This document shows positions 39,001 through 63,000 of a stretch of 64,000 nt of DNA, in pieces. The position numbers and the translations under genes are program-made. Location: assembly GCA_030691625.1 (NCBI GenBank), contig JAUYDX010000042.1, positions 463-64,462 on the forward strand, in the 5' to 3' direction. This DNA is from Candidatus Omnitrophota bacterium. Lineage in GTDB: Bacteria; Omnitrophota; Gorgyraeia; Gorgyraeales; Gorgyraeaceae. How positions within the stretch are numbered: position 1 is the first letter of the stretch; every line of letters begins with the position of its first letter. The notes below the pieces were generated by a model, which saw nothing but the letters and a program-made list of their open reading frames with translations, searched no databases and was not told the origin of the DNA.

Positions 39001-42000
39001 AAGGCCTGGGAATCAGAGATAGTCAGGATGGTTGAAAAGGCTGGTTCGCTAGAGGCATTAAAGTATGACGAGGCATCTGACAGCTTTGAATTTGCAAGGG
39101 TCATAAAAGAAGACAATAAAGATGTGGAAAGACAGCTTAAGCTTACCAGGGTCTATGGCCTTAAAGGAGCGGAAAAGAATGTAGAAAAGATAAATGATAA
39201 ACTGATCAAGGCCAGGATGTTCAGCGAGTCGCTTAAGCTGGAAGACGGAGGCGTGATAATACAGGATATTTCAAAGACTTCTTATGAGACAAGGAAAGGC
39301 ATAGATGAGGCATTAAAATACCAGATAAAGCTTACAAGGCTTCTCGGCCTTATAGCCAATGAAGCTGAGTCAGATCCTGCAAGGGCTGTCAGGATGTACA
39401 AGATGCTTTTCTGGGGCAGGGCTGACGTGGAGCTTCCAGCCATAATAAATACATACCTTAAAGATGGAAACGGAGCAGCCCTTAAGATCTTACTGAGCAA
39501 TATACCGGAGAATTTCTCATGGAGCTATTACACCACTATTGACACTAAAAAGGTAAAGATAGGCATAGTATTCCCGCAAAAAGGCCTGGCAAGGGAGAAT
39601 GAAAAAGGCGACAGGTTCTACGGGGATCTAAGGCCTAGCCTTGAAAAGGGTTATAAGGTTTTTGATGTCTATGACCTGCCAAAGGAACAGGCCAATAGAA
39701 AACTTTTATGGACAGAATATCAGGATTCGCTTGGCAGGCGCATAGCGAAACTTAATGGCACAGAGCTTACTATCATAAAGGAATTTGTAATAGGCACCAA
39801 TATCGCCAAAAAGACTGTTACCATAGACTTTGACAGGCGCGATCCGGAGCGCAATTACCTCGCTACAACAAGAGAGCTTGAATGTCAGGATGGGATACCC
39901 GTTATAAACCCAAGAACACCGGGCAGGCTGCATTACACCAGCCACATAAGCGGCGAAGACTTTGATGTGGAAGAATACCTTGATTATAAAGGCAGGCAGG
40001 CTGAGATAGTGAGGTTCGCGGATACCGCTTCCGAGAGGATCATCAGGAATACGCTTTTTGCCCCGTATGGCGAGGATTATATTAGCCTGCAGAGCGAGAC
40101 AGAATATAATGACGCAAGCATTGTCTATATGAGGTTTAAATCTATCCTGCCGGACAAAAGCGTGCTTTACGATGTGTCTGATAATCCTGATTTTGACGCA
40201 CAAAAAGGCCATGTATGGCAGGAAAACTATAGCTCCACAGGCAGGTCTTTAAAAAGCCAGGTGATAGAATTCGCTGCCAAAAATGACATTGCGCCCAAGT
40301 CAGCGGAATTTGAGGCTGTAAAGACGCGCTTAAAGGCCAGTATCCAGACTGAGCTTAATAGAGGCGCTATCGGCAAAGACCGCAACCTCGCCATTATAAT
40401 GAAACTTGCGCCGGCCCTTAACGCAAAGATCGTATCTGAAAACGCCGCGCTTAGTCCGGAAAAAGAAAAGCTTCATACTGTATTGAAAGAAGAGGATATA
40501 GGCGATATAGACGGCTTTGTGAATTATTTATTCGACCAGGATGCTGCAAAAATTAAGGAGAGCGAGGCGAGACGGCTGTTGCATTCCAGATACGCTACTG
40601 TTGTGGCAGATCTGTACTTCAAGGCAGCGATAAGGGCAATAACAGGCCAGAGCGGAGATTATGATTATGAATCTGCGTATGTATATTATAAGCTTTTAAT
40701 AAACGGCGCGTATAGAGGCAGAGCCGAACAAAGGATTGATAGGGGCATAAGAGAGACCATAGCAGAGCTAAGAAAACTGGAAGGACTTAATAAAGATACG
40801 CCAGGGCTGCTCCAGAATAAGGCAGTGCTTTTAAATCAGCTCAGGTCCAGAATGCTCATGACCTCTCCTGAAACCATCTACTGGACTTTCTACGATCTTA
40901 TAAATGACAGGAATATGCAGATACAGTACAGCCCTGAGGATATAATCCGTTACAGGCCAGAAGGCGAAAATATGTTCTTTGAGCTGGTAAAGCTGGAAAG
41001 TTCTCAGCTAAGCCAGGACGGAATGACCATCACCTTTAATAACACGGTTTATTACGCAAGGCTGAGCCTGGAGGAAATAAGAGGGATAGCTAACGGAAAA
41101 GAAATAGCGCCAAAGACCGGAATAAGGCATGAGGTAATGACATATGATAAGAGGTCTGAGAGGATGACCAGGCAGGAGGAGACTGAGAATATAAACGGGA
41201 ATAAGATACCTACAGTGCGGCTCACTGCCTCTACAGGGCTTAAGACAGACCCGCAGTATACATTGAGCCGGGAGGACTTCACTCTCTTAACCAGGCATTA
41301 TTATATCCCTGGAACTAATATAGAGAAATCATTCGAAAAGATAAGGATCGGGCCTGACAATAAGAGGGTTGTCACAGAGCAGGGAGCTGTTGACACAGCA
41401 GGGGATATCGTGAGCCTTAATAGATCCGCTGAAATGCCTATGACAGGCATTATGATATTTGAATTCATGAAGGTGGATAAGGCGAGGTTGAAGATTGATA
41501 ACGCGGTTAAGCTTATAGAGGTCCTGGACGCAAACAATATCCCTGACGGCGCAGAGATATTATTAGAGCGGCATGTGGAATACGGAAAAACAATGGACCC
41601 TGACGGCAGTAACGCGAGGGTAAAAGAAGCTGGTTTAAAATACAAAGATAAGGAATTAAAGCCAGGCATAGACATGAGGACGTTCTGGAAATGGGAGCAG
41701 AGTAATACCAAGATGCAGCCGCTTAAAGAAGGAGAGCCAAACCAGGTAAGGTATAAGGCAAATCAGGAAGTTGTCGAGAAGGATATTCGCGAGCGTGCTG
41801 TTACAAGCGTGCCTCATAAGGTAACAGGCGATAGAACAGAGGATAAGCTTACGCGCGAAGCAGCATTCAATCAGACAAGAGACGCTTATAAAAAGGCAAG
41901 CTTCCTGAATGCAGAAGGCAGGGATTATGCAGACTGGGTGTTTAAGTTTGATATGTCGTGGAGAAATATTATCAACGCGTATCTTGATAAAGACACCTCA

Positions 42001-45000
42001 GCTAAATTCATAGAATTTGTAAAAGAAAAATTCAGGGAGAACCCTGAGGAATTCCTAAGGATATCAGCTTTTAACACATCAGGAACAGCTGTTGAATGGA
42101 AGCAGGCAAACGGGCCGAACGCTTGGGTGGTTATTGCTATAGGTCATGACATAGAGAGAAATGGGGATGCGGATGGGTCAAAGCTTAAGCTCGCAAAGGA
42201 TATAACTGACAGGCTGATTACTACAGGAACAGGATATAAAAATACGCAGGCAGACGGCACCACTATCACAGATGCCATGATAATACCGTTTGAGCGCGGG
42301 TCTAACAGGGCAGCAGTGGAGCACAACATAGATATGTACGTGATATGCAGGTATCTTGGAGCGAAATTAGGAGAAAATGGAGATGGCAAGACGTACCGTG
42401 AGTATGCCAGGAAGATAGCGAATTATTTAAGAGCGCCTGCTGAAAAAGGCGGAGCCATTGTGACCAGGGTTATTGAGGAAAACGGCAGGAAGCGCGTTGA
42501 GACATTCCTGGGCAGGGGCGTGATAGATATATATAATTTTACGAAAAACGGGGATATCTCAGGCGGCAGATTTGATGAAGCAACCAAGAAATGGTTAGAA
42601 GGGACGTTTGACTATAATGTGGCTACAGACGCGCAGGCGTGGATGGCGTCCCTGGCCCAGATTTACAAGGATGATTTCCCGAATCTTGACCCGAGGGGTT
42701 TTGTGAATTTTATTGAGAGGAACTGCGCTGTAACAGTGGATTTTAGAGGCCAAAAAGCAGGCACAGTGGATTACTTTGATTTTGTAGGAAGGATGGAGCA
42801 GATAAGGCTCCTCAATCAGAAAATAAGCGAATGGGAAGGAAGAAAAAGGGATTACTGGTTTGGTACGAATTCCGGCGCCCTCAAAGGAAAAGAACTCCTG
42901 GATGCGGAAGAGAGGTACCTGAAGACGCAAGGCGGCGAATTAGCCCCGTGGGATGTCTTCCAGTTAGAAATAGATAATGCCAAACAGGAAAGAGCCAATC
43001 TCCTTAATGCTTTCAGGCAGAATCCAGCTGCAGCAGTGGAATTTATGACGTACATGATAACAGCGTATTATCATTCTGCTGAAAGGGCAGATGAAATGGC
43101 AGAGGAAGAAAAAGACACTGAGCATAAAGGCGCGGCATATTATAGGAAACAGGCGGAATTCTACGAGAACGAGCGCAATAAATTTATTATAACTGAAAAT
43201 GGAGAAACAGGGCTGGTTTATGCCAACCAGGAAGACCTGGATAAGGACGATAGCAAGGAAAAGACTCCGGCAGTAACCATATCTGCCTCATCCACAGCAG
43301 CCGCTGCAGCGGGTAAATATATAGAGCATATAGATCCGCAGACAAAGGTTAAGAAGGTGTTCGACCCATTCAGGATACAAGGCAATAAACTAAGACAGGA
43401 AACTCCTGCAAAACCTGCTGAACCAAAGGAAGAGTCAAAAGACAAAAAAATAAGAATATCAGGCGGAGCTCCTTTAATGATGGGGATGAATCTGGCTCTC
43501 CTGGAGGATGTAAAAGATGCGTGGGAATGGGCGCGCAACAATACATTTATCGGAAAGATATTTGGAAGGGCTGTAAAGAGCGAAGAGGTTATTGTACCTG
43601 CTGTAGAAATAGGCCAGGTGCTTCCTGTGGTAAGTTATTACGGCGAGACTCTGGCGTATACATTTGACGTATCAGGAAGGATCTTGAGAGATATCCTGTT
43701 GAACAAAGATAAAGAAGAATCGCAGAGACTCCTTGATTTTATGTTCTCAAGAGAAAAAACTGAGAAGGTATCAGGGTTATGGCCAAGCGCCTTTGATATT
43801 AAATACGGCAGGATGCAGGAAAATAATGATCCTGGTGGTCCTGCGAGCTGGATGATAAGGGCCAGGATGGCTGACATAGAGGCGAATGGGGATACCGCTG
43901 GCAATCAAAAACTTTCACAGATTGTAGATTACGCTGACAGGCTTCTGAATGGCATGATGGTGAAATATGAAGTAAATGGCAAAAGATTAGGGTTCTTAGT
44001 TACAGGCCCAGGCGCCATAGGGGTTTCTAACGAACATAATATAGACCATTTTACAGTATTTGAATATTTAGGGAGAAAGATAACAGGCGCTGACGGAGAC
44101 AGATTCAGGGACGCTGTCAGGAGGCTCGGTAATTACTTTGATACGCCTGTAAGCCAGGGCGGGGCATTGAGAGAAGACGGGGTATATAAAGGGATACCCA
44201 TAAGCAGTATCTCAGATATTAATATGTTTATCAGCGGGAAAGATAATAAAGGGAATAATATTGACAGGGAAAAGCTGGTAGGTAAGGAGATATATACTGA
44301 TGTCCTGGGCTGGGGCGCTTCCATAGCAGAGCAATATTCAACTTATTTTACCAACTTAGATCCGAGAAAGCTTGTAGATTTCGCGCTTGATGCGAGGAAC
44401 GGTATATTGGTGACTGTTTCAAGAGGCACCAGGATAAATGGCATTGAACTTACCAGCGATACACAGGGTTTTGATTTTACTGATACAAGAGGCAGGGAAG
44501 GTATCAGCAGTCAGTGGAAGGTCAAGAGGGCCCCGATGATAAGCAGTGAATGGACGGTATATATGCTTAGCGCCCTGGAGTATGCTGCCAGGGCCGCAGA
44601 CAGGGCAGGGGATAATGTCAATGCCCAGAGATACCGCGCTGAAGAAACGCGCTTAAGACAGCATCTGGAAAAACTCAGGATAAAGATAGGAGACAAGGAA
44701 GGCCTTGTATACGCTACAGCGAATGATGTCCAGAAGATAAATATAGGAGGGACTGAAAATAAGACCATCCAAAACTGCGTAAATTCCATTGCCATGGCGC
44801 CTACTTCAGCTTGGGAATTATATACAAATGGCAAGGATATATTGCAAAGGATAGAGATTACAAAAGGCGCTGTCTCAAGCCTTGTAAAGACGCTCAATAC
44901 ATCTTCAAGCCCTACCAGTCTTCAAGATTTTATACTGCTTTCACAGCATGGAGACGCTTCCAGGTACCTTGATTTTACAAAGGTTACGCCAAGGCCTAAT

Positions 45001-48000
45001 ACAGATGGCACCATAAGCTTTATGAGAGACGGCATGGAACTCGCTAAGCTTAAGACAAACGGCATATTAATAGTCAGGCAGTATGATGAGGCAAAAAGAG
45101 AGGAGATATATAAAGAGGCATGGACAGGATGCAGGATATTAAAAGACAGAAATGGCCGCGATTATATCGATATAGGAGTAAAGAGCAAGAAATACAGGCC
45201 AGCGGAACTAATGCTGGATGACTCCATAGCCAGCTACATAAGAGATAAAGGAACCAGATTTATTAGAGGCAATTCAACTGTTAAAGAAAACTGGCTTTTT
45301 GAAGATCAGGCTGATTATGAAAGTTTGAGGAATGCCTTGCAAAATAAGACTAGAGCTATTTATGTGGAAGAATCTGCGACTTCAGGCAAGCCTGGAAAGG
45401 TTAATTTATTCGTCAATAAAGATGCCATTATTCCTAGAGGCAGTTTTATAGGGAACAGTCTATCTCTCCTGAGGCCTATGGAAAGGAGCCAGGCATGGAT
45501 GTCAATGGGCCAGGGATTTGAGGAAAAGGTCAGGAGTAATATAAGGTCTAAAGGCGTTGAGGTATTTAACAGTCAGGAAAAGGCCCTGGGTTTCATAAAT
45601 AAGCTGGATAACGCGATAACCACCGCTACTCTTGAGTTTAATATGCTCCAGTCGTTTAGCGCGCCTCAAGCTTATATAGGCTTTACATATGCTGATAAGT
45701 CAGGCAGGGAATCCCAGCTTGGCAGGCTCCAGGCAGGGAATCTTGCCATTACAGCAGAGCTTGTCCAGCTGGATCTAAATAACAAGGTTATTTACGAGCA
45801 TCCAAGGTTAAAAGAAATCATAGGGTATTCCAATAGTCAGAGCGTATTAGATAGCCTTGTGGGGCAGGAAAAAGGCAAACCATTTAAACAAGATAGCGAT
45901 TTAGAGACATGGATGGCTAGATTAGATTCGCGTAAAAATGTAACAGCCTTTACCAATTTTATCTTATCCAACAATGGCGCAGGGGACATGCTCAGGCACA
46001 AGACATCAACAATGGTGTATCATGGCTATTCTGAGGCGCTTCGCTTTGATAAAAACGGCTTTAGCTTTACAGATACATCAAATACCACTCATACCTTTAA
46101 ATACAGGGATAGCGCTGTCAGGACATATATAGCCAAGTCATGGATTTCCCCTGATGGCATACCTACTATTATGAATGTTAATACCCATCGCATCTGGCAG
46201 GAGCTCAGGGATGAATATGACAGGCCAAAACTTATATTTAACGGCGAACTGAATCCTGACGGGACATTTGGCCAGGAGTCAGTGACCATAAACTGCTATA
46301 AGGCGAATGAGTCAGAAGACCCTGATAATATTTATACCCAGATCCAGCTTGACAGGGCTAGGATAGATATTGACAGGCCTGAGTTTACCGCGCAGGAGAT
46401 ACAATCGCTGATAAATAACAGGACTCTGATAGCCAGGTCTCTAAAGTTATCAGAAAACCTGGAAGACAGCACTGTACTGTATGAAAAGCACAACTATTCC
46501 TATGACAGGTACAATAGATTCGCAGACGCTGTTTCTAATGAGCTGGTGGAAAGCAGCGCGAGGAAAGACGGCAGGATGCTGGAGAAGGCTTTTCCGGATG
46601 GCGCGCGGGATGTGTCTATATACAGCGATCTTGTGCTTTCAGATATCGGCATCCCAAAGATGACAGTAAGGTTTGTGGATGTGCCTGCTGCTGAAAGGCC
46701 TGCGGAGAAAGGCATATCAGAAGTTTCAGTGGCAACAAATCTGGACACAACCACAGGCAGTCTCAGGATCACAAAATTGAAATTAATGCCGGATAAAGGC
46801 ATTGTTTTTGACAAGCAGGGATTTGAGCGGGACGGGTTTGTGAAGCCTGTATTTTCCAGCCATATCATGGGGCTTCAGGAGGAGATAAAGAACAATAAAG
46901 GCCAGGGCGTAATAACCCTGCTCGGCTATCCTTCAATGGAAGTGAATGAGGCCGGAGAGCCCTTGACCGCCCCAAGATTAGCGGCGTTTTCTGATTTTGA
47001 CGCCTTTAATACGCTTAAAAACAGCTATACATTTAAAGTGGAATTAGATAAAGATGGGAAGCCGATTACAAACCCCGGCATATATATGCGGGGTAACAGC
47101 CTTGAAAACGGCTCATGGCTCAGCAAGCTGAATGATCTGCAGTTAGATATTAAAGGTATTTTTACTTATTACTTTTACGATAATCAGACAGCCAATAGAT
47201 ATGTGTATCTTAGATATGACGGCGGTATCAGCAAAGAGTATTTTGAGCCTAATAAGATATATCAGGGATATTCTAAAACTAATACCTATGACGCGTTTTC
47301 TCTTCCGGAAAAAGCCTATTATTCGAAAGATATATTCCCTAACCGCATTTCAGATTTTACAAAGTTTGGCAAGGATGATTTGTTTGCCCCTCCGTCTAAA
47401 TCCGGCGCAGATTTTAATTATGATAATGTAATATTTACGCGTTATCCAGGATGGGTCTTATCAGTTGAGATGCCGACAAATGGCAGTATTTCTTTTTCTG
47501 AGGACAACCCGTTTGACAGCCTGGAAAAGGCAAAAAGACTGCCATATGACGCTACCTTGAGCTTTAATGGGTTTGTCATAGCCCAGGCCGCAAACCATAA
47601 GGTGAGGCACCTGAAAGACGTGAAGGATGTAAGCCAGGAGATGAATATTACAGACAAATGGTCAGAGGATGCCAGGTCCAATAATCTATTCACCAATTTA
47701 GGGATGTGGGGGGATCAGTTTATCGCTAAGATCACGATCCCTGTGATCGGGACGATTGTAGCTGCTGTCTTATTAGGGGTTTTCGGAAAAAGATTTTTTA
47801 GAAAAGCAGGCATTGTTATAGGCGCCCTGGTCTTAGTGAACCTGTTCGGCCATCCTCTGAATATTATTTTTATGGCGCTTGGCATTGGCACCGCTGTTCT
47901 TGGGATATCAATGGCGGTAGAAACTATTATAGGCAAACGCCTGGCCAGGGGCATTGAAATAGGCGTTGGCGTATTATCCGGCACAGGCCTTGTTTTTTCT

Positions 48001-51000
48001 ATCTTCACTTCTTCCTATGGTTTACTGGCGTTTTTTGCGGCTATAGGGGTGATGCTGTGCATCACGCCTATAATAAAATCTATATTTGTGAAAAACACGA
48101 ATGAAGGCGGATATGAGAATCTGGAAAAATGGGATAAGTTGAAACCCAGGCTTTCTGAATTGATAGGCCATGTTTTTGGGATATGGAAGTGGAAAATGGC
48201 AAAGGTTATTGCTATCTCGAGCCTGGCTATAATATCTGTAATATTGTGGCCGTCATGGATGACAGTTGTGGTGATGGCAGGCATAGCTCTGACTGTTAAG
48301 ATATTAAAAGGCATCTTAGATAGCAGTGACAGGAGATCCTCTTTATGGAAGCTTGGGATATTTGGGGTTATCATAGCGCTTGATGCCCTGATAGTGTATT
48401 TCGCACCTTCTTTAAGGGAAAGCCTGATTAATATAGCCACAGAGTTATTAAGGGATCCATTAAGCTTTATAGGCGCATTGACAGCAGGGATAACAGGATT
48501 ATTATTCAAAGTTAAACCCAAGGCCGGCAAGCAGGTAAATATAAATATAGCCGGAGTTGGAGAATTGGAAAATTTGCTTTCTATGGCAAAAGGGCTTGAC
48601 AGAAATCAGGCAAGAAAACTGGCTGAAAAGATCATAGTCCATCAAGTTATATGCGGCCCGCTCGCGCTTCAGGGTATTGATACAAGGCAGTATCTGTCTC
48701 TTATTTTTGGGGAGAACGACGCCAGGATCATATCAGGGCTTATTGAAAAAGGATTGATTGTTACGCAGATTGAGGAAGGCCATGATTTTTATGATGACAT
48801 GGAAGCGCCTCCGCTTGATAAACTCATAGATTATTTGAACAATACAGCGCAGACATCTCAGGGAACATCAGATTACCCTGTATTTATAGCTATAAAGGAT
48901 ATACTTGATAAGAATCCGGATATAAGAGGGGCACTCTTGGAATCGCTTAAGGAACTTCCGCACAGAGATAAGAAAGCTATGGCATGGAAAGAGGCATTTA
49001 CAGGCGCTGTAATATTAGCGGAACAAAAGGCATTAGATAGATTGAAAAACGCGAAAGATAGTGACGAGATAAAGGATATATTAGATTCCCTTCCAATGAC
49101 AAGCCAGTCTATTATGTTTAAACGAGTTATTAAATTGATCGAAGAAAGAAAAGGACTGTTTAAAGAAAACAAGCAGCCTTTGGATATGAAGATAATCAAA
49201 GGATTGGCTGAAACCAAGATTAATTTTACAATCTTTACAAGGGCATTGGTAAGAAGGCACCTTGAAGAAAAAATAGAGGCCATCCTGAAAGAGCTCCTTT
49301 GCTCTGATGATAAGCTGGAGGCAAAGGTAAAAGACGATATTTTAGATTATGTGATTAATGACATAGAATCTGATTTATACAGGAATCCTGATGCGCTAAG
49401 CGGAGATGAAAATATAAAACTCCGCTCGGCATCTAAAATACTTATGGCTGAAAACCTGAAGGAAAGGGTCATCATCCAGTTCCTGAGGCTTCCGCTGTCT
49501 CGTACAAAATGGCATTCTTTCGGACAGATGTCGCTTCTTGTAACAGCATTGCCTTATGTAGCCAGGAAAGCGGCTGATATCCTTAATGATAAAGATGCCA
49601 GCCTTTCTAATAATGATAAAAGCATTAAAACTTTAGGATTCATACGTAACTGCGTGAATTTCCTTATACCATTTATGCTTGGCCAGGATTCAGCGTTCAG
49701 ACAGACCACTACAAGGGCGCCTGACGCGGAAAGAAACAGATACCTGGATGAATTGTTCCTGGAAGGAGATGTCAATGACTTATTTGCCAGACTTACCCAG
49801 GAAGGCATAGACCTTAGAGATAAAGGTCAAGTAAAAGAATATTTTGAGAATACCCTTAAGATATTAAGAGAGATAGGGGATATGTATGATATCCCTGGTT
49901 TAAAGGAGAATCCGCAGGAGGATTTCATCGGCAAATTATGCCAGGCTGTTGAAGAGATATACAGGGATAGAGACGAGGATATTTTTATAGAGTTTGGCAA
50001 GGCGCTTAAAGAGGACACATTCAGGCTCACAGCTAAAAAATACCCCGGGCTTGAGAGGAAATTAGTCGGCAAGACAGGGGTAATCGAATTATTTAAAAGA
50101 ATAGCCGTGCCTTTTACCGCCGCAGGTTCTTTCTTTGGCATAGAAGGAGCGAGGCAATGGTCAAAGGTCGCTGGCCTGCACCTGCTCCTGGTATTTACAG
50201 GCACAGTTCTGGTGCCTTATGCCGTAACCAGCGTATTTGCCCCGTTATCCTTTGTTTTTATAATAAATTCCATAGTACTGCCGTTCCTGGTATTAGGAAA
50301 GGCGGATATCAAGGCAAAGATATTCTGGATATTTGTTTTTGAGACCTTCAGCGTCTTCTACTTTGGTTTTCTCTTTGACATGATTATAGCAAGCGCCCTG
50401 CCAAAGATCGGATACTGGTTCAGCCTTGGCACAGCCATAACGCTTTTTATCTTTTTAGGGATAGGTCTGCCCACATTCCTCACCAGCTATTACCTGGCGC
50501 TGCAGGGAAAGATGAAGCGCGCATATGGGTCAGACCTGTGGAGCAAGACAGCAAAGGATATAATAGGGAAACGCGCTTGGACAGAAAATTTCATGGGGAT
50601 TAACTGGGAAAAGACCTTCAAAGACTGGATTGAAGAGTTTTTCAAAGTGGAAGACGAGAGAGGCCCTATACTTCCTCAAGGGGAAAGCGTGAGCGAATAC
50701 CTGGAAAGGCTCCTGGAGAGGATGCGGTCTAAGTGGCTGATAAGCAAAGATGAATATGATGCCTGGAAAAAAGCAGTTACATCAGGCGGCAAGGAAGGGG
50801 CATTTAAAAAGCCAGCTGATGAAAGGGCCATGGAAATGCTTCATGAGACATTCATGACTATCAGCATGAAAAAGCCCAACGTGGACGCGCTTATGCGGCT
50901 TTCCGCCATTACAAATGATGTGCATCCAGCAGGAGAGGATTTCTGGCTGAGCTGGGAAAAGACAGCCAGACTTGGCACTTTTGACCCTATCAGCAAGTCG

Positions 51001-54000
51001 GAGACCGGGGCAAAGGATGCTGAAAAAGATAAAATGCAGGAAACATGCATGCTTGGCTATATTGCAAGGAATAACAGTCCATCATGGGAGAACAGCGTTG
51101 ATTATATAACTGATAAGATACAGGAAAGATTTAATGTCGTACCTGATGAAAAGAAAGATAAGATAAAAGAATACCTTAAAATTTTAAGGGGCATGACAGA
51201 GACTACGGATGTGTATAACTCTCTTTCCGGTATTGGCGACCCAAAAACCGAATTGATCATAATTAAGACAGTGGAGACATGGATAAATGAGATGATCCCA
51301 AGGGATTTCGGGGTTGTGGAGTCATTTTATAATGACACGATAGAGATGCACCTTTATATAGCCAGCCAGTTAGGGGATTGGGCATATTGGAAAGAGGTAA
51401 GACAGGCTGTGATGAAAGATGATTTTATTTCTTTGAGAGATTATTTTGAGAAAAAAGGCGATGAAAAATTAAAAAGGACTTTTTATGCTTATGATGAGAT
51501 AGCAGAGTCAAAAGTCCAGAATATATATCATGATGTCAGCATGTGGGCAGGGGATGGTGCGGAGATGCAAATTGACGAGGATAAGAAGGTGTTCAAAGAT
51601 TATAAGAGTGTGGATTATTTCATAGAGGTAATGCGCGGGTTGGCAGATAAGGACAAAAAACTGGCAGATGACATAGAGGCGGTTATAAATAAAGCTGATA
51701 AAGAAACAATGGGGAAGGATGAAAGAGATATATTGATGGGCTATAAGAAATTTGAGCCTATAGAATGGGCTGAGAAATTTATTGAACTGCGCGAAAGGTC
51801 TTTGCCAGACCTTATCGCGCTTAAGATAGATGATGAGGATTTCTGGAGCGCCTTTGATAAGCTTTACCAGAGGGCTAAGATGTTCGCAACCTGCAGTAAA
51901 TTTGATGTGGATGTGCCTTTGTTTAATAAGAGGGACAGCCTTATACCTCAGAAAAACCCCGCGATAGCAAGCTACAGATGGAAGATATTCGGAAAGACCA
52001 GCGGCCATGACTCATTTGTGAGGATATACCCGGGCCAGAATCCCTGGACATTGAACCTTCTTACCCTTCAGGGCAGAAACCTGGACATAGCCTGTGTCCT
52101 GCCGCCTATAAAGATAGCGTCTAAAGGCAGGTATTTCCCCACAACATATACATACGCTGTCGGCCAGGAGGCATTTACCTATGTGGTCCAGCCAGCGTGG
52201 AAAGGATATCTGACCTATTACGGGAAAGGCGTCGCAACGCCTGAGATCATAATGCTTTTCCAGACCCCAGGAGAAGACTCAGCCAGTTTCATGATGATTA
52301 AGAAATATTACCCTGAATTTATTTCAGAAAACCGCAGTTACAGAAAGCTTGAATGGGGCAGGCCTACCTTTGTGAGCACAGTGGCTTCAACAGAATTGAG
52401 ATACGCATATAATGTCGCCAGGTATTTTATGGATTATTCCACATACCAGATATTTTTTGACAAAAAAATAGGTTATGACACCAAGTTAGCGTTTTTAGTA
52501 TTCTTCATGCATTATCTTGTGGCGCCTTTTGTCATCCTGTCGTCTTTTTCCCTTATCTTACTGACCCTTGGCAGCGCCTACGCGTTTTTACCTGTGTTAT
52601 TGTTCGCGATTATAAATACCGCAAGCTCGCAGTTCATTAACCTCTCCAATTTCTCGCGCTATATGGTGCAGACAGGAAGCGCCGGCCAGGCAATTAAGAT
52701 GACATTCAAGGATATCTTGTCCGGATTCTCCATGTGGGTATTCATGTTCCCGCTTTTCTTCCAGGGCCTGTGGAACGCCTCAAATGAGGTGTATTCCTAT
52801 ATCAGGACAGAAAAGAAGGTGGCGCTATCTGAGTTCAGGGAGAACAGCGATGAGCAGATCTATGTAAAGGCGATGAAATGGGGCGCTATATATGGATGGC
52901 TGGGGATCATCGCGATAGCTATCCTGGTGGCTGAGGCAGGCCTTATCGGCTCTATATTCGCGCCTTTTATCATGGGCCTTTATATCCTTTCTGTAAACGC
53001 GTGGGTTTCAGGGATATTGAGTTACAGTAAGTATGAGGAAAAGGAGGAGGCAGGGAAGATATTGCAAGTCAGGTTAAAAGGATTTTCAGCAGGGAGTTTC
53101 TTTATAAAAGGTATTTCTTTTACCTTTATAAAAATCTCCAGGGATCTATGGGGCGCGTTCTTAGACTGGGCATTGTCCATGCTTAAAAGGAGCCTGCCAC
53201 CTAAATTGTCTTATACAGGCGACGCGAGAAATGAAAAGTTAGCTAATAAAGCGATAGAGGACGCTGAAAAAGAGGATAAGGTGCTGGATGCTGAAGAGGA
53301 ATCCATAGAGATAAATCTGCCGCAAGGAGAAAAGAAAGAAGTAGATATCAGGGTCAAGGATGTTATAGATACATCGTATCTCTGGAGAGGAAGAGGAGCG
53401 AACAGGACTCACTGGGAATATCTGGATGTCATTAACGGGATTATTTATATATCTGACAGCTCTTATGAATATGAAGGCCTAAGGGAGTTGATACTTGGTC
53501 AGGCCGCAGCTGAACTATACATGTGGAGGCAAAAGGCAATAGAGCTGGCAGGTTACCATGATAAAACGTGGGACAATCTGGCTGGTAGAGAGAAGAATAA
53601 GGCCATGAAGCGCCTCAGAGACTGGCAACTGCGCAATCCAGAAGCTGCGGCAAATTACGGCAGACACTGCAAGGAAGAGGCAGATAAGATCTATCAGCCG
53701 CTTATAAGGTCGCTTCTTGAAAAATATCATGAAGCTACCAGGCAGGATGAGGAGGAATTAATAAAAGGCCTTGTCATAATAAGCTTCGCAGGCAAGTATG
53801 TTAATATAAAACATTATGTGGACATGGCAGTTAGAGATATTATCCCTGAAAAGCAAGCATGGCCTGACCTTACTGATGATGAGAAGATATCTATCCTGGA
53901 ATATTATACTGATAAGGTGATAAGAATATCAAAAGGCATGAATCGCATATCATGGGATGAATGGAGCGATCTTCCAGGCGCAGAGAAATTAAAATGGGCT

Positions 54001-57000
54001 TCTTTGACAAAAGAGGAAAAAGAAAATATTCTAAGATTCTGCAGGGATAAGCATAATAAGATACCGGAAATAGAGTCTGCGGCCATTGAAGCTGAAAAGG
54101 CCAGCGATGATGTATGGGAAAAGTTGCGTTATAACAGGAGGCGTGACCAGAAAACACTTGAGGATATCATAGATGAGCTGAACCAGCTTACCATAGGAGG
54201 CGTTAAGCAGGGATATAAGGATGTTTCATCGCTGGATGATGCTGTTAAAAAGGCCGCTAAAGGGCTTGGCTGGGATATGGTATTTAAAGGATGGTCAGAA
54301 TTAAAATATGAGGATAGGAAGTTATTGCTTAACGCGCTATCAAGGTATAAAGACCTTAATTATGGAGAGATATCAGAGCTTGCGCGTCAAAGCTGGAAAT
54401 TCGGATTTAATGAAGATAGATTAAATCAACTGTTAGTAACAGGAAATACATTACATAGATTGATAGAAGAGGGGCAAGCTGATGAAAGAGACAGGATTCG
54501 AGACAGATTCTTCAGATTCAAGAGATGGTCTGAATTATCTGATAAAGAAAAAACAGATGTAAAGAATGAAATAGAGAGATTGTCAGGTGAGCCGCAAATC
54601 ACAGAAAAAGACAAAAATGCATACAGAAAGATATTAGAATTAATTAGAGAGTCAGGCAATAGGAATAATGAGATAGAGCCTGCAAACCTTAAAGATATAC
54701 TTAAAACGCCTGAAATTAAACCTGATGGGAGCGAAGGCGAAAAAGAAGACCTTAATAAATACAGCTGGGCAAATGAGTTAAGAGAACATGGTAGATATGA
54801 TGCGGTTAAGGGGATAACTCTGGATATGATTTTTAACGGCCATTATGGGGCGCATATGCTATTTGGCGGGTCAGCTACGCGGCTTGGGCTCGGCGCCATG
54901 TATTTCATAAGTATAGCAGAAACCTGCAGGAAACTGGTTGAGATAAAAGAAAAGATAGGTCAGGGTAAAACACCCACTGATAATGAAAAGGTAATCTGGT
55001 CCAGTTTTATAAAATCCATACCGCATCCTGCAAAGCAGGAACGCGTAATAGAAAAGATACGTAAGTTCTTAAAAGAAAAAGATGAGGTTTTATATAAAGA
55101 TTCTGGTTTTAGTGAAGAAGATATAGCCGCTTACAGGCATCGCTTAGAAGAGTTGATAAGCGATGCGAGAAGGAAGGACGCCAATCCAAAGGCAGTAATG
55201 GCTCATATAAAGGATTTCTTAAACTCAACAGAGGTTAAAGAAAAAGGCTTGCCAGGCACGGGGATTGATCAGATAGCTATTTACAGGCAGAGTTTGGGAG
55301 AATTGATAAATAAGGCGGAGAGAAAAGACGCTAAGCCTGAAGCAGTAATAGCTGATGTACGCGGATTATTAAAAAAGATCCAGGAAAGTATTTCAGGTGA
55401 AGACCCTGGGTTAGGGCCTAATCAGATTATCGCTTACAGGATGCGCATAGAGGAATTGGCAAAGGCAGCTGGAAAGGCCGCGGATGAGATAAAAGCGATT
55501 ATAAATAAACAGGTATTAGTCCTGCATGTGAACGCTTCGCTTTTGCGCAAGATAACAGAAGACCTTAGAAAGAATGATTTCTACGGGTTTAACCCGGATA
55601 ATGTGTATGTGATACCTTCGCCCATGATTCTTGGCCACAGGCTTGGCAAAAGGCGCGGGGAATTTATCCTTGACCTGGACAGCCCAAGGCTTGTTGTGGG
55701 CCATGGAGAGGCATTTGAGCAGTTATTCCGCAAGGACCAGGTTTATCAGGCAGGCGAAGACGGGAAACCCGTAAAGGTAATGGGAAGATCAGCAGAAGAG
55801 ATACTTGAGGAAAAAGGCGTAGATGTCTTTTGCGCCCAGAGGATAAATAATCTTAAGATGTGGACAGACGAGGTCTTGACCCTTGAGGCTGTTATGCATT
55901 TTGCGGATGACCCAAACCTTGATCTACAGGTAATGCTGGTGGCTAATCCTACGCGCCAGAAAGGCGGTTCGTGGTCATATATAAGGGGAAATAATACCTA
56001 TGGCCTGGTGGAGTCGCTCAGCTTAAAGGCAAACGGCATCAAAGAAATACAGAACACCCCTCCAGAATCTTACAATGAGTTTACTAATTGGTATAGATTG
56101 AAACAGATAAAGAGCAGGTTAAATGTAAAGAGCGGCATAGAGCTGGTGCAGAGATATATCAAATATAAACCAGATGACAGCGAATATTATAAACTCAGGG
56201 ATGGATATGGCCCGCAGGCGCATACTGACGCTGTAACAAGCGATTTAACTCTAAATGAGAGGTTGCGTTGTAAAGCGGCGCAGAGGACACCGCAGGATGC
56301 TATAAATGATTTCAAGGAGCTGAAAAATTTAGAAGCGGCTATGAAGGCTGTGCTGGGATTCCTTAAGAAGAAAAAGGAACACGAAGGCAATCGTCAGCCG
56401 CCATCAGGGTCTGACACAACGCATAATGAGGAAACATTGGGAGGGACACAGGAGTCTCTTGGGAGCAATATGAATCTCGTACCTGTCATTATGTCTGTTC
56501 TCATGTCGCTTGCTGTATTCCTTGATAAAAAAGTTTTATTCCCGCTATACTCTAAAGAGCCCATAAGAGAGGAATTAAGGCCCAGCTGGCAGAATCTGAG
56601 CACTGATATCATTCCTTATGTTATCCTGTTCGCGGGTTTAGTCAGTTTTGCGTCATTTTCAACCACAATAGCGGCAATTATAGGCCTGGCTGTAATAGAA
56701 TCCTTAGGCTTAAGCAAGTCTGTCCCAGACAGGCTATTCCATACACTGGAGTTTATGTCAGGCGTTGCGTTTTTCTCTTTATTGACAGTTATTACCTTGT
56801 TTGTGACAGCCTTAATAATACGTCCTTTTGAAAAACCTTCTACAGAGGTTTTAAAGCCTGTAAACCAGCATTTCTGGCAAAGAAAGCCTATATGGGGCTT
56901 AATAGGCAGGGTTACATTCCAGGAATTATTCTACACAGGCGGCCTGATAAGCATTCCTTCGATTTTAATGGAGTCATCAGGATTTAAATCTTATTATGTG

Positions 57001-60000
57001 TATATGTCGAGGGTAATTCTTGTAATGTTTGGGGCGTGGATATTCGGAAGGTCTCATCAGAAGCTTATTTACTGGTCTAGTGACAAACCAGGCCTGGAAG
57101 AAAAGGAAGATACGACCTCAAGGCATAAGTTATTTTTCTCCACGCTGGGAATAGTTTTCAGAGGCCTGTATCTTATACCCGGCATCAATGCTTTAGTAGG
57201 GCTTTTTGGGGCTGTTTCCATGCATCTATTCTATGGAGTAAAGATAGCCCCATTCTTTAACCTGCCACAGGCCATTGACTCATCGCATGAACAATCTATC
57301 AATGAACGGCTTAGCTATTTATGCGAGGGTAGCGAAGCTATGAAAACAGCTATCAAAGGCGCTATTGTCAATGATTACTGGTCTTATGGCGATCCGCCAT
57401 TTAAGGTTACGGTTAGAGTTGATAAGGACGGCAAGATGATAGAGGACACAAAAAAACTGCATATAAACAGAAGGTTATTCGAAGGCCTGTTAAGCCATCT
57501 GCATGATAAAACAACAGGCGATATGTGGCGTTATATTACTATAGCATTATTGAAGTATCTTGAGACATCCTTCTTGAATTTAGACACTTATGACTTAAAG
57601 GCTTTGGCCAATCTAAAGCAGATCTACATTGGAAGGCCGTATAGCAAAGAATACAGGCGAGATCGCTTGAATCCGTTGTATCAGGATACAGAAAAGTTAA
57701 ATTATACCAGCGCGCTTGCGGCGCTGTATGTATATTATGAATCTTTCAATAGCGCGGCGTATTATGACTATCTAAATAGCAAGGGGGTTATCAGCGCTGA
57801 CATAGAAGACCTTGCTAAGGCTGTAAAAACAGATGGCTTCCTCAGCCTTACTCTTGGACGGATGGCTGATTTTATGTATAAGTGCGAAAGAGAAAATATA
57901 ATAACTGCTACGTTAGATGCTTTTCTACATGGGCGCAGAGGTTATATTGCAGAAGCAATTCAAGATATTGTAAGCGGGTATAGAGAAGAGAAATTTATGA
58001 AATATATGTATATATTAGCCGAAAGCGCGCCTGAGGAAAGATGGCATGACCTTATAAGTTTTTTCTGGGAGATAAAGACAAACCCAAACGAGCAGGTAAA
58101 AGAAGGAGAACTGGAATTTGCCAGGCCTTTCCAGTTATATGAAACTTTTATGAAAGATGAAGAGAGAAAGCCCAGTCATAATCCTGGAACAGAAAGTATC
58201 GCCAGCGGCGCATCCCTTAAGGCCTCGCTCAGAGATTTATTCGCAGGCAATAAGGAAATGCAGGCAATGATAGCAGATAGCGTTATTCATGGCGATTGGG
58301 GATTTGGAAAGCCTGCCGCTGAAGTTACAGTAAAGATAGGAGAGACGCCTGTCCTGAATATCAACGGTCAGCTGTTAGATGCTTTATTAAAGAAGATAGA
58401 AAAAGACAATAATCCTGAACATAAGAAGATCTGCCTGGCTACTATTATGGGCGTATTGAAACAGGAGAAGGCTCATATTGATAATATTAATGCCAATGCT
58501 TATGACTTAAAGGCCCTGGCAGGCATAAAGGAGGGCTTTAAAGAAGCGATGGGAATAGACCCTGATGCAGAAAGAGAGGAGACAAGAAAAATATCAGAGG
58601 CCAGGGCTGGTTTGCAGGTTAAATATGAAGAGATAGGTTATAGGATATTAGACAAAGAATATCGGGACCGGCAGATTCATTCTACTGCCATATATAATCT
58701 GGGAGAGGCATATTATAGAGAGGGAGATGAGTTATTGGGCCGTACATTGATGCAGATATCAGAGTTTAAGAAAGGCTGCGAGACAGGGAATGGCAGCGTG
58801 TCATATCCTGCGGCGCTTGATTTGGAAAAAGGCGAAAAGAAAAAAGAAGACAACAAGCACTGGGATATACCAAGGTCTATTGAAATAGCATCGCAAGACC
58901 CTGGTTTTGTAGATCATTTAAAGAATGACTCAGATAGAATGACAGTAGAAGAGGTTAAGCAGAGATTTAATATCCCTGAGCAGGAAAAAGTTAAAATGCC
59001 GGCCGAGCTCATCTTCGGCTCGGGAAGTGTTTCCGAGTCTGCCGCGCTAAGCAGTAACCATTGGTTTACAGATTTTTATCCTATTATATGGTTAAAAGAA
59101 AGATGGTCTGCAATCTGGAACCGCAGATCAAGTTTTCTGCAGGTATTGCCGCATATTGAATCGCCTGCAGTTTCTACGTCAACCAATGATTTACAGGCCG
59201 GACAGAAAATCCAGGAATTGCCGATAAGAGAGAGGATTAGAAAAGAAATCATGGCGCGTTCTGATATTGTCAGTTTTAATCCTACTAATGTCAGGGAACT
59301 ACAAGATAAGTTTAAAAACAAGAGCTCTGGGCCTGAGAAAATAGAAAAAATTGTCAGACGTTTATTAAAAACAAATGAAATAATAGAAGTATATGGCGGA
59401 AGATTAGTTGCGATTAAGACTAACGGGGAAGATAAATTAGGCGAGTTAATAAGGATAGGGATGCTTGTGAAATACCGCAGTCCCGAAGGGATAAAATATA
59501 TAACTGGAAAAGATCTGGAAATATTAAAAGCAAACAATAAAATTATAGCGGTGTCAACGGATGAAGAAGGATCCCTGGAATATATACTGGAGAGCGATTT
59601 GAATAAGTTTGAAGACATAATAGCGCTTCATTCTGCTGAGACTACAGGCAAGCCAGCTGAGCGAACAGTCAGTCCAAAGATTTCTTATTACCAGGCTGAT
59701 TTATTTTTCAAAATGTTCGAAGGCAAGTTTATAAAAATCGATAATCCTGCTACAGGCAAACCCAAATACATAGCATCTCAGGGAGAACACAAAAAGCCCT
59801 ACTTAAAAGAAATTAGGGATTCAAATAGGCGTAAGCTCGAGAAGATAGTTGGGAAAAAGCTGATGGTTAAAGAAAGCGACGCGGATTTAGAAAAAGAAAT
59901 AAAGGATTATATCGGTATTATAAGGAAAACATATACGATCCTGGACACTGTTTTTGGAGACAGGCCGGACGCAAAAACAGGAGAATACTTAAGCGACGCA

Positions 60001-63000
60001 GCATTAGACAGGACATTTGACACAAGCGACTTAGCCATAGCTAATAATTTGTTTGATTTTAATGCGCGCGAAAGCAGAGAAAAATATATTCAGTTACTCT
60101 GCGCAGCATTAATTTTAGATATACCCGACGAATCTCTCGCAGCGCTTTCCAGTAAAGAAACTGAGCCCATAAGAAGGCTCGCGAATAAGGTCAGATTCAT
60201 GGTAGACGGCATGCCTTATAAAAAGAATACCAAGGATGATTTTCATGCAGGCAAGTTTGAAACTATGATAGAAGATATGATTGAAACGCCAGAGGAACTT
60301 TTGCTTTATTTAGGAGCCAAGATCGATAAATTAAAATCTCATGCAAAAGCTTCTGCGCAGGTAAAATCCGATTATTATGATGAAATGAGGTTTATAGTAG
60401 CAGCTGTTGCTCAGCGTTATGGTTTAGTGGAATTGGCAAATGAAATAAAAGACAGGGTTTTTAAGGGTCTGGACAAAGATAATTATGAAGCGACTGTGGA
60501 AGCCAGGGATAAGAAAACCGGGATGGAGGAAAAGACTGCGCAGAGGTACATAGAAAGATTGGTCGGTGAATTGAAACAAGCCCTGCTTGGAGCAGGATTA
60601 AAAGCAGACATAGAGATCTACGGCCGTTTAAAGACGCCTGGCAGTATAGAACAGAAAAAAGGATTGAGGGGCTATGACTTTGATGATATGAGAGATCTGA
60701 TAGGGGTTAGGATCATTACAGAAAATGATCAAGATTGTTACGCGGTAATAGCTTTAATCAGGCAAATCTCCCATACAGAAACAGGAGAAAGGTCTTTTCT
60801 TGGCAAAGAAATATTAAAGGGATATGACGACTATATCGCAAAGCCCACAAAAGACGGATATAAAATGTTGCAGTTATGCGTGAACCATCCGATTGGTTTA
60901 AATGTTTCAAAATGGGGAATTATTGAAAACTCTTCGCAGTCGCAAACCATGCTTCCTATAGAGATACAGATCAGAAGCGCAGAAATGGAGAAGAAGGCGA
61001 AATACAGCAGTGATATCAGTGATCCTGTGAGAAATGCTAAACTAGCAGGCTATAAGTACTTTAAGAGCACAGGCTATGTGCCGGATATAGGCGTTGACTT
61101 AACGAGAAACATAAAAAATGTTAAGGAAAGTTTAAAAGAAGGCGATAAAGAACTGAGAGGTAAGGCCATATACTTACGTTTGCTGGAGAATAATGAAATA
61201 ATAAGGCTTTTGGAGACTCATGAAGGCCCTACGCCTGTAGACGCAATCTGCCACCGCAGGTATACAATGGATGATGTAGAAAGAGTGAATGGGATCACTA
61301 TAGTTACACGGGACGAAGATACAGAAGTTCCTAAAGAAATCAGTATCAGTTTGCTGGGAAAGGGCACGCAAAAAGTAAAAAATCTTCAGTACTTGGGGAA
61401 AAAATTACGCAGTGGAGATTCTATTGTAATAGAATATGTAAGAAAAGGAAGCGCTCGTATGCCCCTATTAGATTATCAGCCAGAACTTATACAAGCTTCT
61501 AATAATCTCAGGACGCAGGTATTATGCAGAAACTTAAAAGGTGGTTTAGACAAAGCTAAAGCGGAAGGAATAAAACTATTGCGCGAAGCAGGTATTATTA
61601 AAAATAAAAGAGATAAGAAGGTTTCAAGAGGCATAGAATCCGAATTGACTCCTATCGCGAGAAAGATTTGGGGCTTTCCAAAAGAAACATGGGAAGATGA
61701 ATTCTATGCAGCCGTAGGCACTCTTGTTAAAACAGGAAGCAATGTCAAAAGCTATGTTATTAATGTTAAAGATCTAGAAAACCTTGGTATAGCTCCTGTA
61801 AGCCTTTCAGGCTCTTCAGCAGCTTTAGCAGTTTCTTTAATCACCAGCGCCATACCTTTATCAGTAGCCTACAGCGTTTCCCAAGATATCCCGGAAATAG
61901 CTACTATAGCCATAGCCTTAGTCTCCCTGCCAGGGCTTATAACCAGCGCATTTTATCTAATACAGACAGGTTTCATAGCGTTCGCGAGGATATTGAATTA
62001 TCTTGTTAAAAGAGGCGTAATTCACGGGCCTCCAGGTTTTGGCCTTATACCAGAGTTTGAAGCTGCTATAAACGATCCTTCCTCAAAAGACCCTGCTTAT
62101 GTATCTCAAGACACGAAGCTTTATGTAAATAAGGCCTTAATGAGACTGATGCCTCAATGGATGCAGGGGCAAATCCTGATACACGAACAAATCCACCAGA
62201 ATGATATAGCCGGACATAGAAACCCAAGCGAAATAAGGGCATATCTAATGCCTGTCATGGAAAGTATCTCATGGCCGAAAGAAAAGTTCGCAAACATCCA
62301 GGGGAAAGTAAGATTTGAATTTTTAGCCGTTGTTATGATGTTTGGGATAGCCCTGGGGACTGTATATTATTTAGGCCATAAAGGACCTGATGCCTCAAAG
62401 GCAGAGCAGCATTATATTCTTGACAGCCAGGCAAAGTTATACAGCGAGCTTAGCAGAATAAACGAAGCAGAGGAAATAGCCGGCCATTATTATATGGGCC
62501 AGGATGGGAAATATCATATAACTGTTGAGGAAAGAGGCAGCGCTCGCTCTGTGTCCCCGGCTTCTCCTGAATTAAACGCGCATAATTTCCATGCCCATCC
62601 ATCGGAAAGCGCGACAAGCCCTCTGCATAAAACTCCGAGCCTGGCAGATCTATATGTTGTTATCGGGGACGCAAGGCAGGAGGACATAACAGTAACAGAG
62701 CCAGGCAGGTTTATAAAACTGGTAAATAACTCCACTGAGAGTAATCAGCCGTTTAAACGCCTGTACGTAGAGATCTACGACCGCGTAAAACAGGAAGTCG
62801 CGAAAATGGACCTGGATGAATATAATTCCGCGCAGATGCGGCAAGTATTAGCAACATATTTATTGAAGAAGGCCTTGTTCGAAAGGATTGAGGCTTTATT
62901 TAAGACTATTGCGCCAGATAATCCTGGAGCATCTGTATTTGATTTAGGCGAAGAAGACCGCAGGCTGGAATTACATGTTAATTCGTTTCCTTTTATAGCA

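Follow-up and report, generated by a model that had tools for sequence, protein, structure and literature searches.

A RelA/SpoT synthetase module of long-RSH type within a giant membrane protein of Candidatus Omnitrophota

The RelA/SpoT homologues (RSHs) are known as free-standing, ribosome-associated factors (Rel, RelA and SpoT, the long RSHs) and as small single-domain synthetases, some of which are toxins. Long RSHs bind the ribosome and inhibit themselves through their ZFD and RRM/ACT domains, and a RelA truncated at its C-terminus (residues 1-455) shows constitutive activity. Tas1/Apk1 and the exported alarmone synthetases consist of an RSH synthetase that is joined to machinery facing other cells and is devoid of a hydrolase; the exported enzymes are of the single-domain small alarmone synthetase (SAS) type, in those that are fused, a domain for export or recognition lies N-terminal to the synthetase, and several classes are encoded with an adjacent immunity gene (PMC12691689). 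A separate line of work has described the giant proteins of Omnitrophota, in which open reading frames (ORFs) of more than 20 kb are common and encode dozens of transmembrane (TM) helices and few, highly diverged domains including housekeeping-type enzymes (PMC10066038; bioRxiv 10.1101/2023.11.21.568195; bioRxiv 10.64898/2026.06.07.730766). The 64,000-nucleotide stretch analysed here (the window; positions 463 to 64,462 of contig JAUYDX010000042.1, assembly GCA_030691625.1, Candidatus Omnitrophota bacterium) brings these two subjects together, as it encodes part of a giant protein that contains an RSH module close to the end of the window. The module represents a third RSH arrangement, RelA-like and composed of several domains, without the ribosome-sensing C-terminus or the hydrolase, and fixed in a giant membrane protein. 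Nucleotide (nt) positions below are those of the window, amino acid (aa) positions are those of its long ORF, and all features lie on the forward (+) strand.

Frame 1 of nt 60481-61080 reads ...EIYGRLKTPGSIEQKK...MRDLIGVRIITENDQDCYAV...GYDDYIAKPTKDGYKMLQLCV...LPIEIQIRSAEME... and contains, in canonical order, all five RelA/SpoT synthetase motifs that an earlier note on this DNA had listed. Their spacing is also canonical in the sequence, but the dot patterns given in that note were one residue short, the real ones being GR.K...SI..K, KP...GY and EIQIR...M. The RelA/SpoT synthetase (SYNTH) domain extends from nt 60613 to 61044, as delimited by the Pfam family PF04607 (RelA_SpoT), by strands and helices 374-517 of a structural model and by Foldseek matches to the catalytic regions of Rel, RelA and SpoT. 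PF04607 scores 62.5-65.3 bits, far above its gathering score of 27 (E=5.6e-17 to 7.7e-18, envelope nt ~60622-61005), and the catalytic acidic residues D264 and E323 (numbering of RelSeq) are kept; the profile search and the structure prediction that had been proposed as checks thus both bear out the identification, the fold search with the predicted module leading to the same catalytic regions. The NCBIfam model TIGR00691 (spoT_relA) matches with E=5e-25 over model positions 81-308, and a single-sequence phmmer search finds E. coli RelA (5iqr) with E=6.8e-14 in an alignment that begins about 100 residues upstream of the Pfam envelope. The scores lie far below the curated cut-offs for full-length proteins, with 87.9 bits vs 499.2 for TIGR00691, 66.7 vs 728 for the RelA equivalog and 37.1 vs 947 for the SpoT equivalog. 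Judged by its sequence, the SYNTH domain is an unambiguous member of the RSH superfamily, one that routine annotation of any kind would pick up.

The SYNTH domain is part of a long-RSH-type module at nt 59494..61887 (aa 19832-20629), the bounds of which come from homology to four other large proteins (P0022-P0025, described below); in BLASTP comparisons these four match the window protein only across aa 19832-20629, with E 1e-52 to 1e-58. By sequence and by model the domains of the module, namely a probable pseudo-HD, SYNTH, TGS and a helical domain, are collinear with those in the first two-thirds of a long RSH. The AlphaFold 2 model of the 798-residue module (mcdd590905239), which was built from an alignment of 89 sequences, has a predicted local distance difference test score (pLDDT) of 79 and a predicted template modelling score of 0.80, with residues 101-747 mostly above 85, and it replaced an earlier model from a 22-sequence alignment (pLDDT 59) that was poor past the synthetase. 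Upstream of SYNTH, nt 59794..60591 appear to encode a helical pseudo-hydrolase (degenerate HD) and linker helices, which correspond to confident model helices 100-366. Here the HD motif reads L-D (aa 20039-20040, nt 60115-60120), nothing corresponds to the N-terminal part of the HD domain, and the Pfam family HD_4 gives a weak, partial and sub-threshold match (17.2 bits vs 27.2, E=0.004, profile positions 40-155 of 156, nt ~60094-60426). The fold alignments to long RSHs take in the N-terminal domain as well. Across the five family members the HD column reads LD in the window copy and YG, FN, FG and LD in the relatives. Replacement of the motif in all five modules and the missing N-terminal part are taken to exclude hydrolase activity; with fair confidence this activity has been lost, and the HD domain would be at best a pseudo-hydrolase, as in RelA.

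Downstream of SYNTH lies a divergent TGS-like beta-grasp domain with an internal insertion (nt 61165..61437, aa 20389-20479; GPTPVDAICH...LRSGDSIVIEY). It yields no match to Pfam TGS in the module and is recovered by profile-profile comparison and modelling: hhalign of the region past SYNTH in the family against 101 long RSHs gives Prob 95.6% and E=1.3e-8 over 165 columns, aligning the TGS motifs GATPxDFAY with GPTPVDAICH and NGDxVEI with SGDSIVIEY, and model strands 558-648 have pLDDT values of mostly 72-95. It is followed by a helical region at nt 61468..61737 which is equivalent to the alpha-helical domain of long RSHs (model helices 659-748, with Foldseek alignments of ~650 columns to 6yxa and 7qpr). 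Neither a ZFD nor an RRM/ACT domain was found, the columns of the ZFD CC motif being gapped in the window copy and no ACT/RRM family of Pfam matching within the module. Instead, about 20 residues past the helical region begin hydrophobic, probably transmembrane segments which close the module (nt 61792..61995, aa 20598-20665; three or four passes according to Kyte-Doolittle values and reading of the sequence), and a further hydrophobic segment is indicated by Kyte-Doolittle values at nt 62308..62376 (aa 20770-20792).

The earlier note had associated the domain with the toxSAS and Tas1 toxins, a kinship which did not survive comparison. A profile of the five modules searched against the sequences of the Protein Data Bank (PDB) finds E. 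coli RelA with E=3.5e-28 (RelA residues 76-358) and B. subtilis Rel with E=8e-26 (Rel residues 84-459, TGS included), whereas SASs are matched in the synthetase domain only and with E=1e-9 to 1e-7, about 18-20 orders of magnitude weaker. The PDB contains structures of Tas1, FaRel2 and CapRel, and none of their chains is returned at E<=10 by the profile or at E<=1 by the single sequence. A Foldseek search with the module model yields alignments of ~600-655 columns with 6yxa (B. subtilis Rel, E=1e-16), 7qpr (full-length SpoT) and 5iqr (RelA on the ribosome), followed by SAS enzymes with E ~1e-6 and by CapRel 9erv at rank 50 (E=5e-5). The sole match in PADLOC is the candidate system PDC-S33 (E=7e-10). 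The results that owe nothing to the model (phmmer, TIGR00691, hhalign and the PDB profile) agree with the model-based fold ranking. Sequence and model together place the module as a descendant of a housekeeping long RSH and not of the known RelA/SpoT-type toxins, and a toxSAS or Tas1 ancestry is rejected on the outcome of the PDB sequence and profile searches, PADLOC and the fold searches.

Like the long RSHs RelA (5iqr/5kpv), B. subtilis Rel (6yxa) and RelSeq (1vj7), the module has the same order of domains and all of the donor and catalytic residues, and with monofunctional RelA it shares the dead HD motif and the acidic xxDD before the G-loop. It is however only 18-24% identical to long RSHs over the whole module alignment, and it differs from them in the rewritten or missing N-terminal part of the HD domain, the substitutions K304T, N306D and H312Q, two insertions and the lack of a ZFD or RRM/ACT. 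Long RSHs are free-standing proteins of about 700-750 residues, while the module lies inside a membrane protein that exceeds 21,333 residues. With the toxSAS enzymes (FaRel, FaRel2, PhRel2 and CapRel) it has the RSH fold and the catalytic motifs in common, and its less basic acceptor site recalls the tRNA-targeting members of this group, but there is no profile match at E<=10 and the window holds neither an antitoxin nor a pZFD context. The GC content, GC content at third codon positions (GC3) and codon usage of the module all lie inside the spread of the remaining ORF. A recent horizontal gain of the module was considered as well and is unsupported, since base composition and codon usage are like those of the rest of the ORF.

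The relatives of the module came from a HMMER search run exhaustively over 1.84 billion representative proteins. The closest are P0022 (6,022 aa, E=3e-53, from the Logan SRR28370465 assembly), P0023 (709 aa, partial, E=2e-49), P0024 (1,682 aa, E=9e-47) and P0025 (2,292 aa, E=2e-39), of which the latter three are annotated as coming from metagenome-assembled genomes (MAGs) of Candidatus Omnitrophota, GCA_040755235.1 in the case of P0025. After these four the list falls to E ~1e-18 to 1e-15 and consists mostly of ordinary long RSHs with a few other large multidomain proteins; one of the weaker matches (P0026) is again annotated as a Candidatus Omnitrophota MAG protein. Single-sequence scans of genome, metagenome and viral contig collections returned no near-identical relatives. 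A word-indexed search of 5.8 billion proteins yielded only housekeeping RSH fragments of 26-32% identity, and the family profile in the same search likewise returned housekeeping RSHs, which served as the reference set, and not the family. The modules carry the family motifs MIKDMIDTPEELLLYL and Y-x-PDIGVDL, and family-specific peptide patterns match only three contigs, all of Omnitrophota MAGs, among 185,579 species genomes and nothing in JGI metagenome contigs. The five modules group as a single clade in a neighbour-joining tree. Identity within the clade is 34% (pairwise 26-40%) and 27% to long RSHs, as compared with 53% among long RSHs. The invariant SYNTH columns of the five-sequence alignment nevertheless include R241, D264, D298, Y308 and E323, and nearly all donor, Mg-binding and catalytic residues are also kept in P0022-P0024. 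Such retention of catalytic columns at only 26-40% identity is the pattern expected under selection for catalysis.

The proteins around these modules differ from one another. P0022 (locus L001, 5001-23069) is apparently complete, with a signal-peptide-like N-terminus, the RSH module at residues ~3650-4255 and a Ribul_P_3_epim domain. P0025 (locus L004, 363-7241) combines the module with a weak match to Sigma70_r2, P0024 combines it with HD_5 (an HD domain of the HD-GYP type), and the more distant P0043 has an embedded RSH domain together with PGM_PMM, Response_reg and GerE. Internal long-RSH-like synthetase domains were also seen in two unrelated large proteins (P0035 and P0046), one of which is a 1,845-aa cyanobacterial TPR/'caspase, EACC1-associated' protein and the other a 1,854-aa protein named as a (p)ppGpp synthase fused to a MalT-type regulator. 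Omnitrophota are therefore not alone in having RSH domains inside big multidomain proteins. No report of RSH domains in EACC1-type conflict systems was found in the literature library that was searched.

The active site was compared in an alignment of the window copy with the four relatives and 84 long RSHs, in which residues are numbered as in RelSeq. The window copy is identical to 84/84 long RSHs at R241, K243, S247, K251, D264, R269, Y299, Y308, E323, Q325 and R327. Four of these make up the ATP-donor motif R-x-K-x3-S-x3-K at nt 60625..60657, where R20209, K20211, S20215 and K20219 correspond to R241, K243, S247 and K251. The DLIGVR motif at nt 60694..60711 provides the Mg-binding Asp D20232 (D264) and R20237 (R269), the acceptor site and G-loop GYDDYIAKPTKDGYKMLQL at nt 60820..60876 retains Y299 and Y308 (Y20287, nt 60859), and EIQIR at nt 60961..60975 contains the catalytic Glu E20321 (E323) together with Q325 and R327. 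D264 and E323 are catalytic residues, and GDP in RelSeq stacks on Y308 and forms hydrogen bonds with K304 and N306, its pyrophosphate being bound by K297, K304, Y299 and H312 (PMC9143738). It is on this acceptor side that the window copy departs from the long RSHs. K304, a Lys in 84/84 long RSHs, is Thr (aa 20283) with a Lys at the next position; N306, an Asn in 75/84, is Asp (aa 20285); and H312, a His in 84/84, is Gln (aa 20291, nt 60871-60873), the SLHT motif reading MLQL with S310 (Ser in 81/84) replaced by Met and T313 (Thr in 83/84) by Leu. An acidic xxDD precedes the G-loop, with Asp at position 297 as is typical of RelA (78/84 in the alignment set). The MHxxAExGxAAHWxYK segment after EIQIR is rewritten, and there are two insertions of ~11 and ~18 residues, the latter of which precedes EIQIR.

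The explanation favoured for these observations, with a chance that is put slightly better than even, is that the module is a pyrophosphokinase descended from RelA, tethered to the membrane, lacking a hydrolase and independent of the ribosome, and that it counts among many enzyme modules of an Omnitrophota giant protein. The SYNTH domain would bind ATP-Mg by means of R20209, K20211, K20219, R20237, D20232 and E20321 and pass the beta,gamma-pyrophosphate on to a purine nucleotide that stacks on Y20287 and accepts it at the 3'-OH, which would result in a (p)ppGpp- or (p)ppApp-type product. It would have no hydrolase activity of its own and would act without the ribosome at the membrane to which it is tethered, on the side where ATP is present. 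Independence from the ribosome is what should follow from the absence of a ZFD and RRM/ACT, and as the module ends after the helical domain, like truncated RelA, it could be constitutively active or controlled by neighbouring parts of the protein. The earlier note had suggested that this is not a housekeeping stringent-response enzyme, and in one respect this stands, since with neither ZFD nor RRM/ACT and with its fusion to membrane segments the module is unlikely to be a ribosome-bound factor; the other half of that claim, an effector function, finds no positive evidence here.

Several observations weigh against an active pyrophosphokinase of long-RSH descent. Both structural models derive from alignments made up mostly of long RSHs, and the fold ranking is biased toward these enzymes as a result. 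In the window copy K304T, N306D and H312Q fall on invariant or near-invariant acceptor positions and the MH...AAHWxYK helix is rewritten. The copy in P0025 is degenerate, with R269Y, Q325H and R327M while D264 and E323 are kept, and is probably inactivated judging from its residues, so that a module of this family can decay. An alternative is that the module in the window is an inactive pseudo-enzyme that makes no product, having decayed to a relic or serving to bind nucleotides as a sensor or scaffold. Such a state would accommodate the change of acceptor contacts at invariant (K304T, H312Q) and near-invariant (N306D, S310M, T313L) positions, the loss of the conserved MHxxAExGxAAHWxYK segment, the insertions of ~11 and ~18 residues, the relative without R269, Q325 and R327, and the fast evolution of a family with 34% identity against 53% among housekeeping RSHs. 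It is rather unlikely all the same, given that the window copy keeps every donor, Mg-binding and catalytic residue and both acceptor-site Tyr residues, that P0022-P0024 keep nearly all of them, and that R241, D264, D298, Y308 and E323 are among the invariant columns of the family.

If the module is an active pyrophosphokinase, as favoured here, the substitutions still imply that activity on GDP or GTP is not assured and that the acceptor is uncertain. That the His of the SIHT/SLHT motif is replaced had been noted earlier and is correct, the residue being Gln at aa 20291; the altered substrate specificity which the earlier note drew from it is a fair hypothesis, to which the changes at two further acceptor residues (K304 and N306) add. 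TGS domains of long RSHs bind the CCA end of tRNA. One possibility is that the acceptor has been re-targeted away from GDP and GTP, for example to adenine nucleotides or to a tRNA 3'-CCA end presented by the module's own TGS-like domain. Of the four residues that hold the 5'-phosphates of the acceptor two (K304 and H312) are lost and a third, K297, is Asp as in the RelA type (78/84), and the guanine-contacting N306 is lost, but not the Tyr on which the base stacks. In toxSAS enzymes that target tRNA, the positive patch at the acceptor site is smaller (PMC11782079). This proposal is purely inferential, and the Lys one position past the lost K304 could compensate for it. Among the relatives, P0023 keeps K304 and H312, P0024 and P0025 keep H312, and P0022 has Gln in place of the SLHT His. 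The module also bears no resemblance to the N-terminal region with which FaRel2 or CapRel binds tRNA, and re-targeting of this kind is considered highly improbable.

The host of the module is a single ORF of 21,333 codons (nt 1..63999), recognised in a six-frame stop-to-stop scan as part of a giant multi-pass membrane protein. Frame 1 is open over the whole window, has no stop codon and continues beyond both window ends, which means that the gene is longer than 64 kb. The GC content of the window is 42.7%, with GC1/2/3 = 47/37/44% at the three codon positions. The protein has 25 strongly hydrophobic segments in ~8 clusters (19-residue Kyte-Doolittle mean >1.8), so that 'giant' and 'membrane-associated', as it had been called, are apt descriptions, and the whole-window Pfam scan recognises very few domains. 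The ORF thus has the hallmarks of giant Omnitrophota proteins, namely a length above 20 kb (>10,000 aa), many TM helices and few diverged domains; it is like these proteins in its length of more than 64 kb, its TM helices and its scattered, diverged enzyme domains, and 3/4 of the nearest relatives of its RSH module come from Omnitrophota. The SecA_DEAD domain, which is reported as common in giant Omnitrophota proteins, was not seen by the Pfam scan in the window, which holds only part of the protein. A serine protease domain of the Trypsin_2/HtrA-MarP type is situated mid-protein (nt 34030-34467, Pfam E=1.9e-12) and could serve in the processing of the giant protein or act on other substrates.

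The suggestion that the module is a toxin payload carried by a YD-repeat (Rhs-type) protein can be examined against the same ORF. Here the bare YD..G motif is weakly enriched (12 copies vs 4.3+-2.0 expected), and to this extent the description 'YD-repeat-containing' holds, but no Rhs/YD model (PF05593, TIGR01643) is matched in the whole-window Pfam scan at E<=0.01 nor in Pfam and NCBIfam searches of aa 5001-5700 at E<=10. Four YD..G motifs stand in tandem at aa 5510-5605 (within nt 16528-16830, aa 5510-5610) with a spacing of 29-35 residues (YDILGR, YDAYGR, YDAFGQ and YDPVGL), an arrangement reminiscent of Rhs/YD repeats, and the last of them, within YDPVGLL (aa 5605), directly precedes a cluster of three hydrophobic segments (aa 5627-5837). 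A motif scan shows that PxxxxDPxGL, which marks the end of the Rhs core, is absent in full from the window protein. The tandem motifs lie ~14,300 residues upstream of the RSH module with ~20 hydrophobic segments between them, a distance and an arrangement which imply that no Rhs cage surrounds the RSH domain. An Rhs protein with a YD shell is accordingly rejected, there being no match by hidden Markov model (HMM) and a weak YD..G enrichment far upstream only. The payload claim is not supported either: no HMM-detectable Rhs shell is present, the YD motifs are ~14,300 residues away, and the domain lies inside the chain, with at least 973 residues after it, including hydrophobic segments and a kinase-like domain.

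Independent of an Rhs shell, the module may be a toxic effector that is directed at prey. The producing cell would be a predatory or parasitic member of Omnitrophota whose giant protein, located at the surface, would deliver the RSH module to a target cell or expose it there, and in the target the module would make (p)ppApp or (p)ppGpp or deplete ATP, a function like that of Tas1/Apk1 which would have arisen independently from a long RSH. The giant proteins of Omnitrophota have been proposed to act in prey attachment and degradation, and with a dead hydrolase and no ribosome-dependent regulatory domains the module is possibly unregulated and hence toxic. Like Tas1/Apk1 and the exported alarmone synthetases it would be an RSH synthetase joined to machinery that faces other cells and without a hydrolase, which makes antagonism conceivable. 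Toxicity is possible even in exported synthetases that make only (p)ppGpp, and known fusion partners of RSH domains include Rhs/PAAR, LXG, MuF, DUF4157, XopAD and signal peptides (PMC12691689); none of these Pfam families occurs in the window. The trypsin-like domain at nt 34030-34467 could in principle release fragments, and the ORF contains the weak YD-like motifs as well as a weak match to DUF4329 (nt 62458-62733, sub-threshold with 18.1 bits vs a cut-off of 28.6). An effector role is nonetheless unlikely. In contrast to the exported synthetases the module is of the long-RSH type with pseudo-HD, TGS and helical partners, it is internal and bounded by hydrophobic segments rather than C-terminal, no Rhs core is detected by HMM, and neither sequence nor profile searches link it to toxSAS, Tas1 or CapRel. 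No immunity-type or hydrolase neighbour genes were seen at loci L001-L005 of four related large proteins (P0022, P0024, P0025 and P0043), and the relatives pair the RSH with domains of a cytoplasmic type, namely sigma-70 region 2, receiver, GerE, PGM and epimerase domains. A more elaborate version holds that a giant envelope protein of Omnitrophota has captured a housekeeping-type long RSH, the acceptor site of which was re-engineered (K304T, N306D and H312Q) for a non-canonical substrate, either adenine nucleotides or a tRNA 3'-CCA end bound by the TGS domain of the module itself, and that an ultra-small predator uses it as a weapon on contact or to manipulate its host. This is decidedly improbable; if it were true, an RSH toxin would have originated independently of the SAS-derived toxSAS and Tas1 lineages.

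Other features of the ORF are found on either side of the module. At the end of the window, which cuts it, nt 63583..63933 encode a P-loop domain like uridine kinase/PRK, with the Walker A motif GLTTSSGKTT at aa 21209-21218, a match to NCBIfam udk/PRK05480 (E=3e-9) and 23.4 bits for Pfam PRK against a cut-off of 22; its homologues in the databases are nucleoside/uridine kinases only (E ~5e-5). A second ATP-using, nucleotide-handling domain is thus located ~850 residues past the RSH synthetase and beyond three to four hydrophobic segments. In the loop between the hydrophobic segments after the RSH module there is an HExxH motif (LIHEQIHQND, nt 62182-62196, aa 20728-20732), which may be a small metallopeptidase-like site or due to chance, as the whole protein contains three HE..H motifs and no family matches. 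Just upstream of the module, an unannotated soluble stretch shows an internal duplication with 25% identity between aa 19099-19299 and 19405-19597, and another is found between aa 14022-14261 and 14596-14826 (31% identity). An internal repeat region without a Pfam family match covers nt ~3300-14250 (aa ~1100-4750) and consists of units of several hundred residues, of which neighbours are up to 67% identical (aa 3002-3499 vs 3193-3667), together with many weaker pairs.

It is already known that diverged domains of housekeeping-type enzymes are scattered through the giant proteins of Omnitrophota, and in this respect the surprise is moderate; if the module is inactive, it is one more decaying housekeeping domain of the kind already reported there. 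An RSH or alarmone synthetase domain goes unmentioned in the main texts of the three giant-protein papers cited above and in one supplementary file, and no paper in the literature library that was searched joins 'Omnitrophota' and 'ppGpp'. What is new is a divergent clade of long-RSH modules, comprising five sequences with a dead HD domain and no ZFD or RRM, inside very large proteins, and what is particular to the copy in the window is the altered G-loop and the membrane protein that hosts it. With its changed acceptor residues the module lends itself to testing what sets acceptor specificity in long RSHs. The host lineage is thought to consist of ultra-small predators or parasites. If the module is active, it would imply that alarmone-type nucleotides are synthesised at the cell envelope or inside prey, and it would provide an assayable enzymatic handle on giant proteins of almost wholly unknown function.

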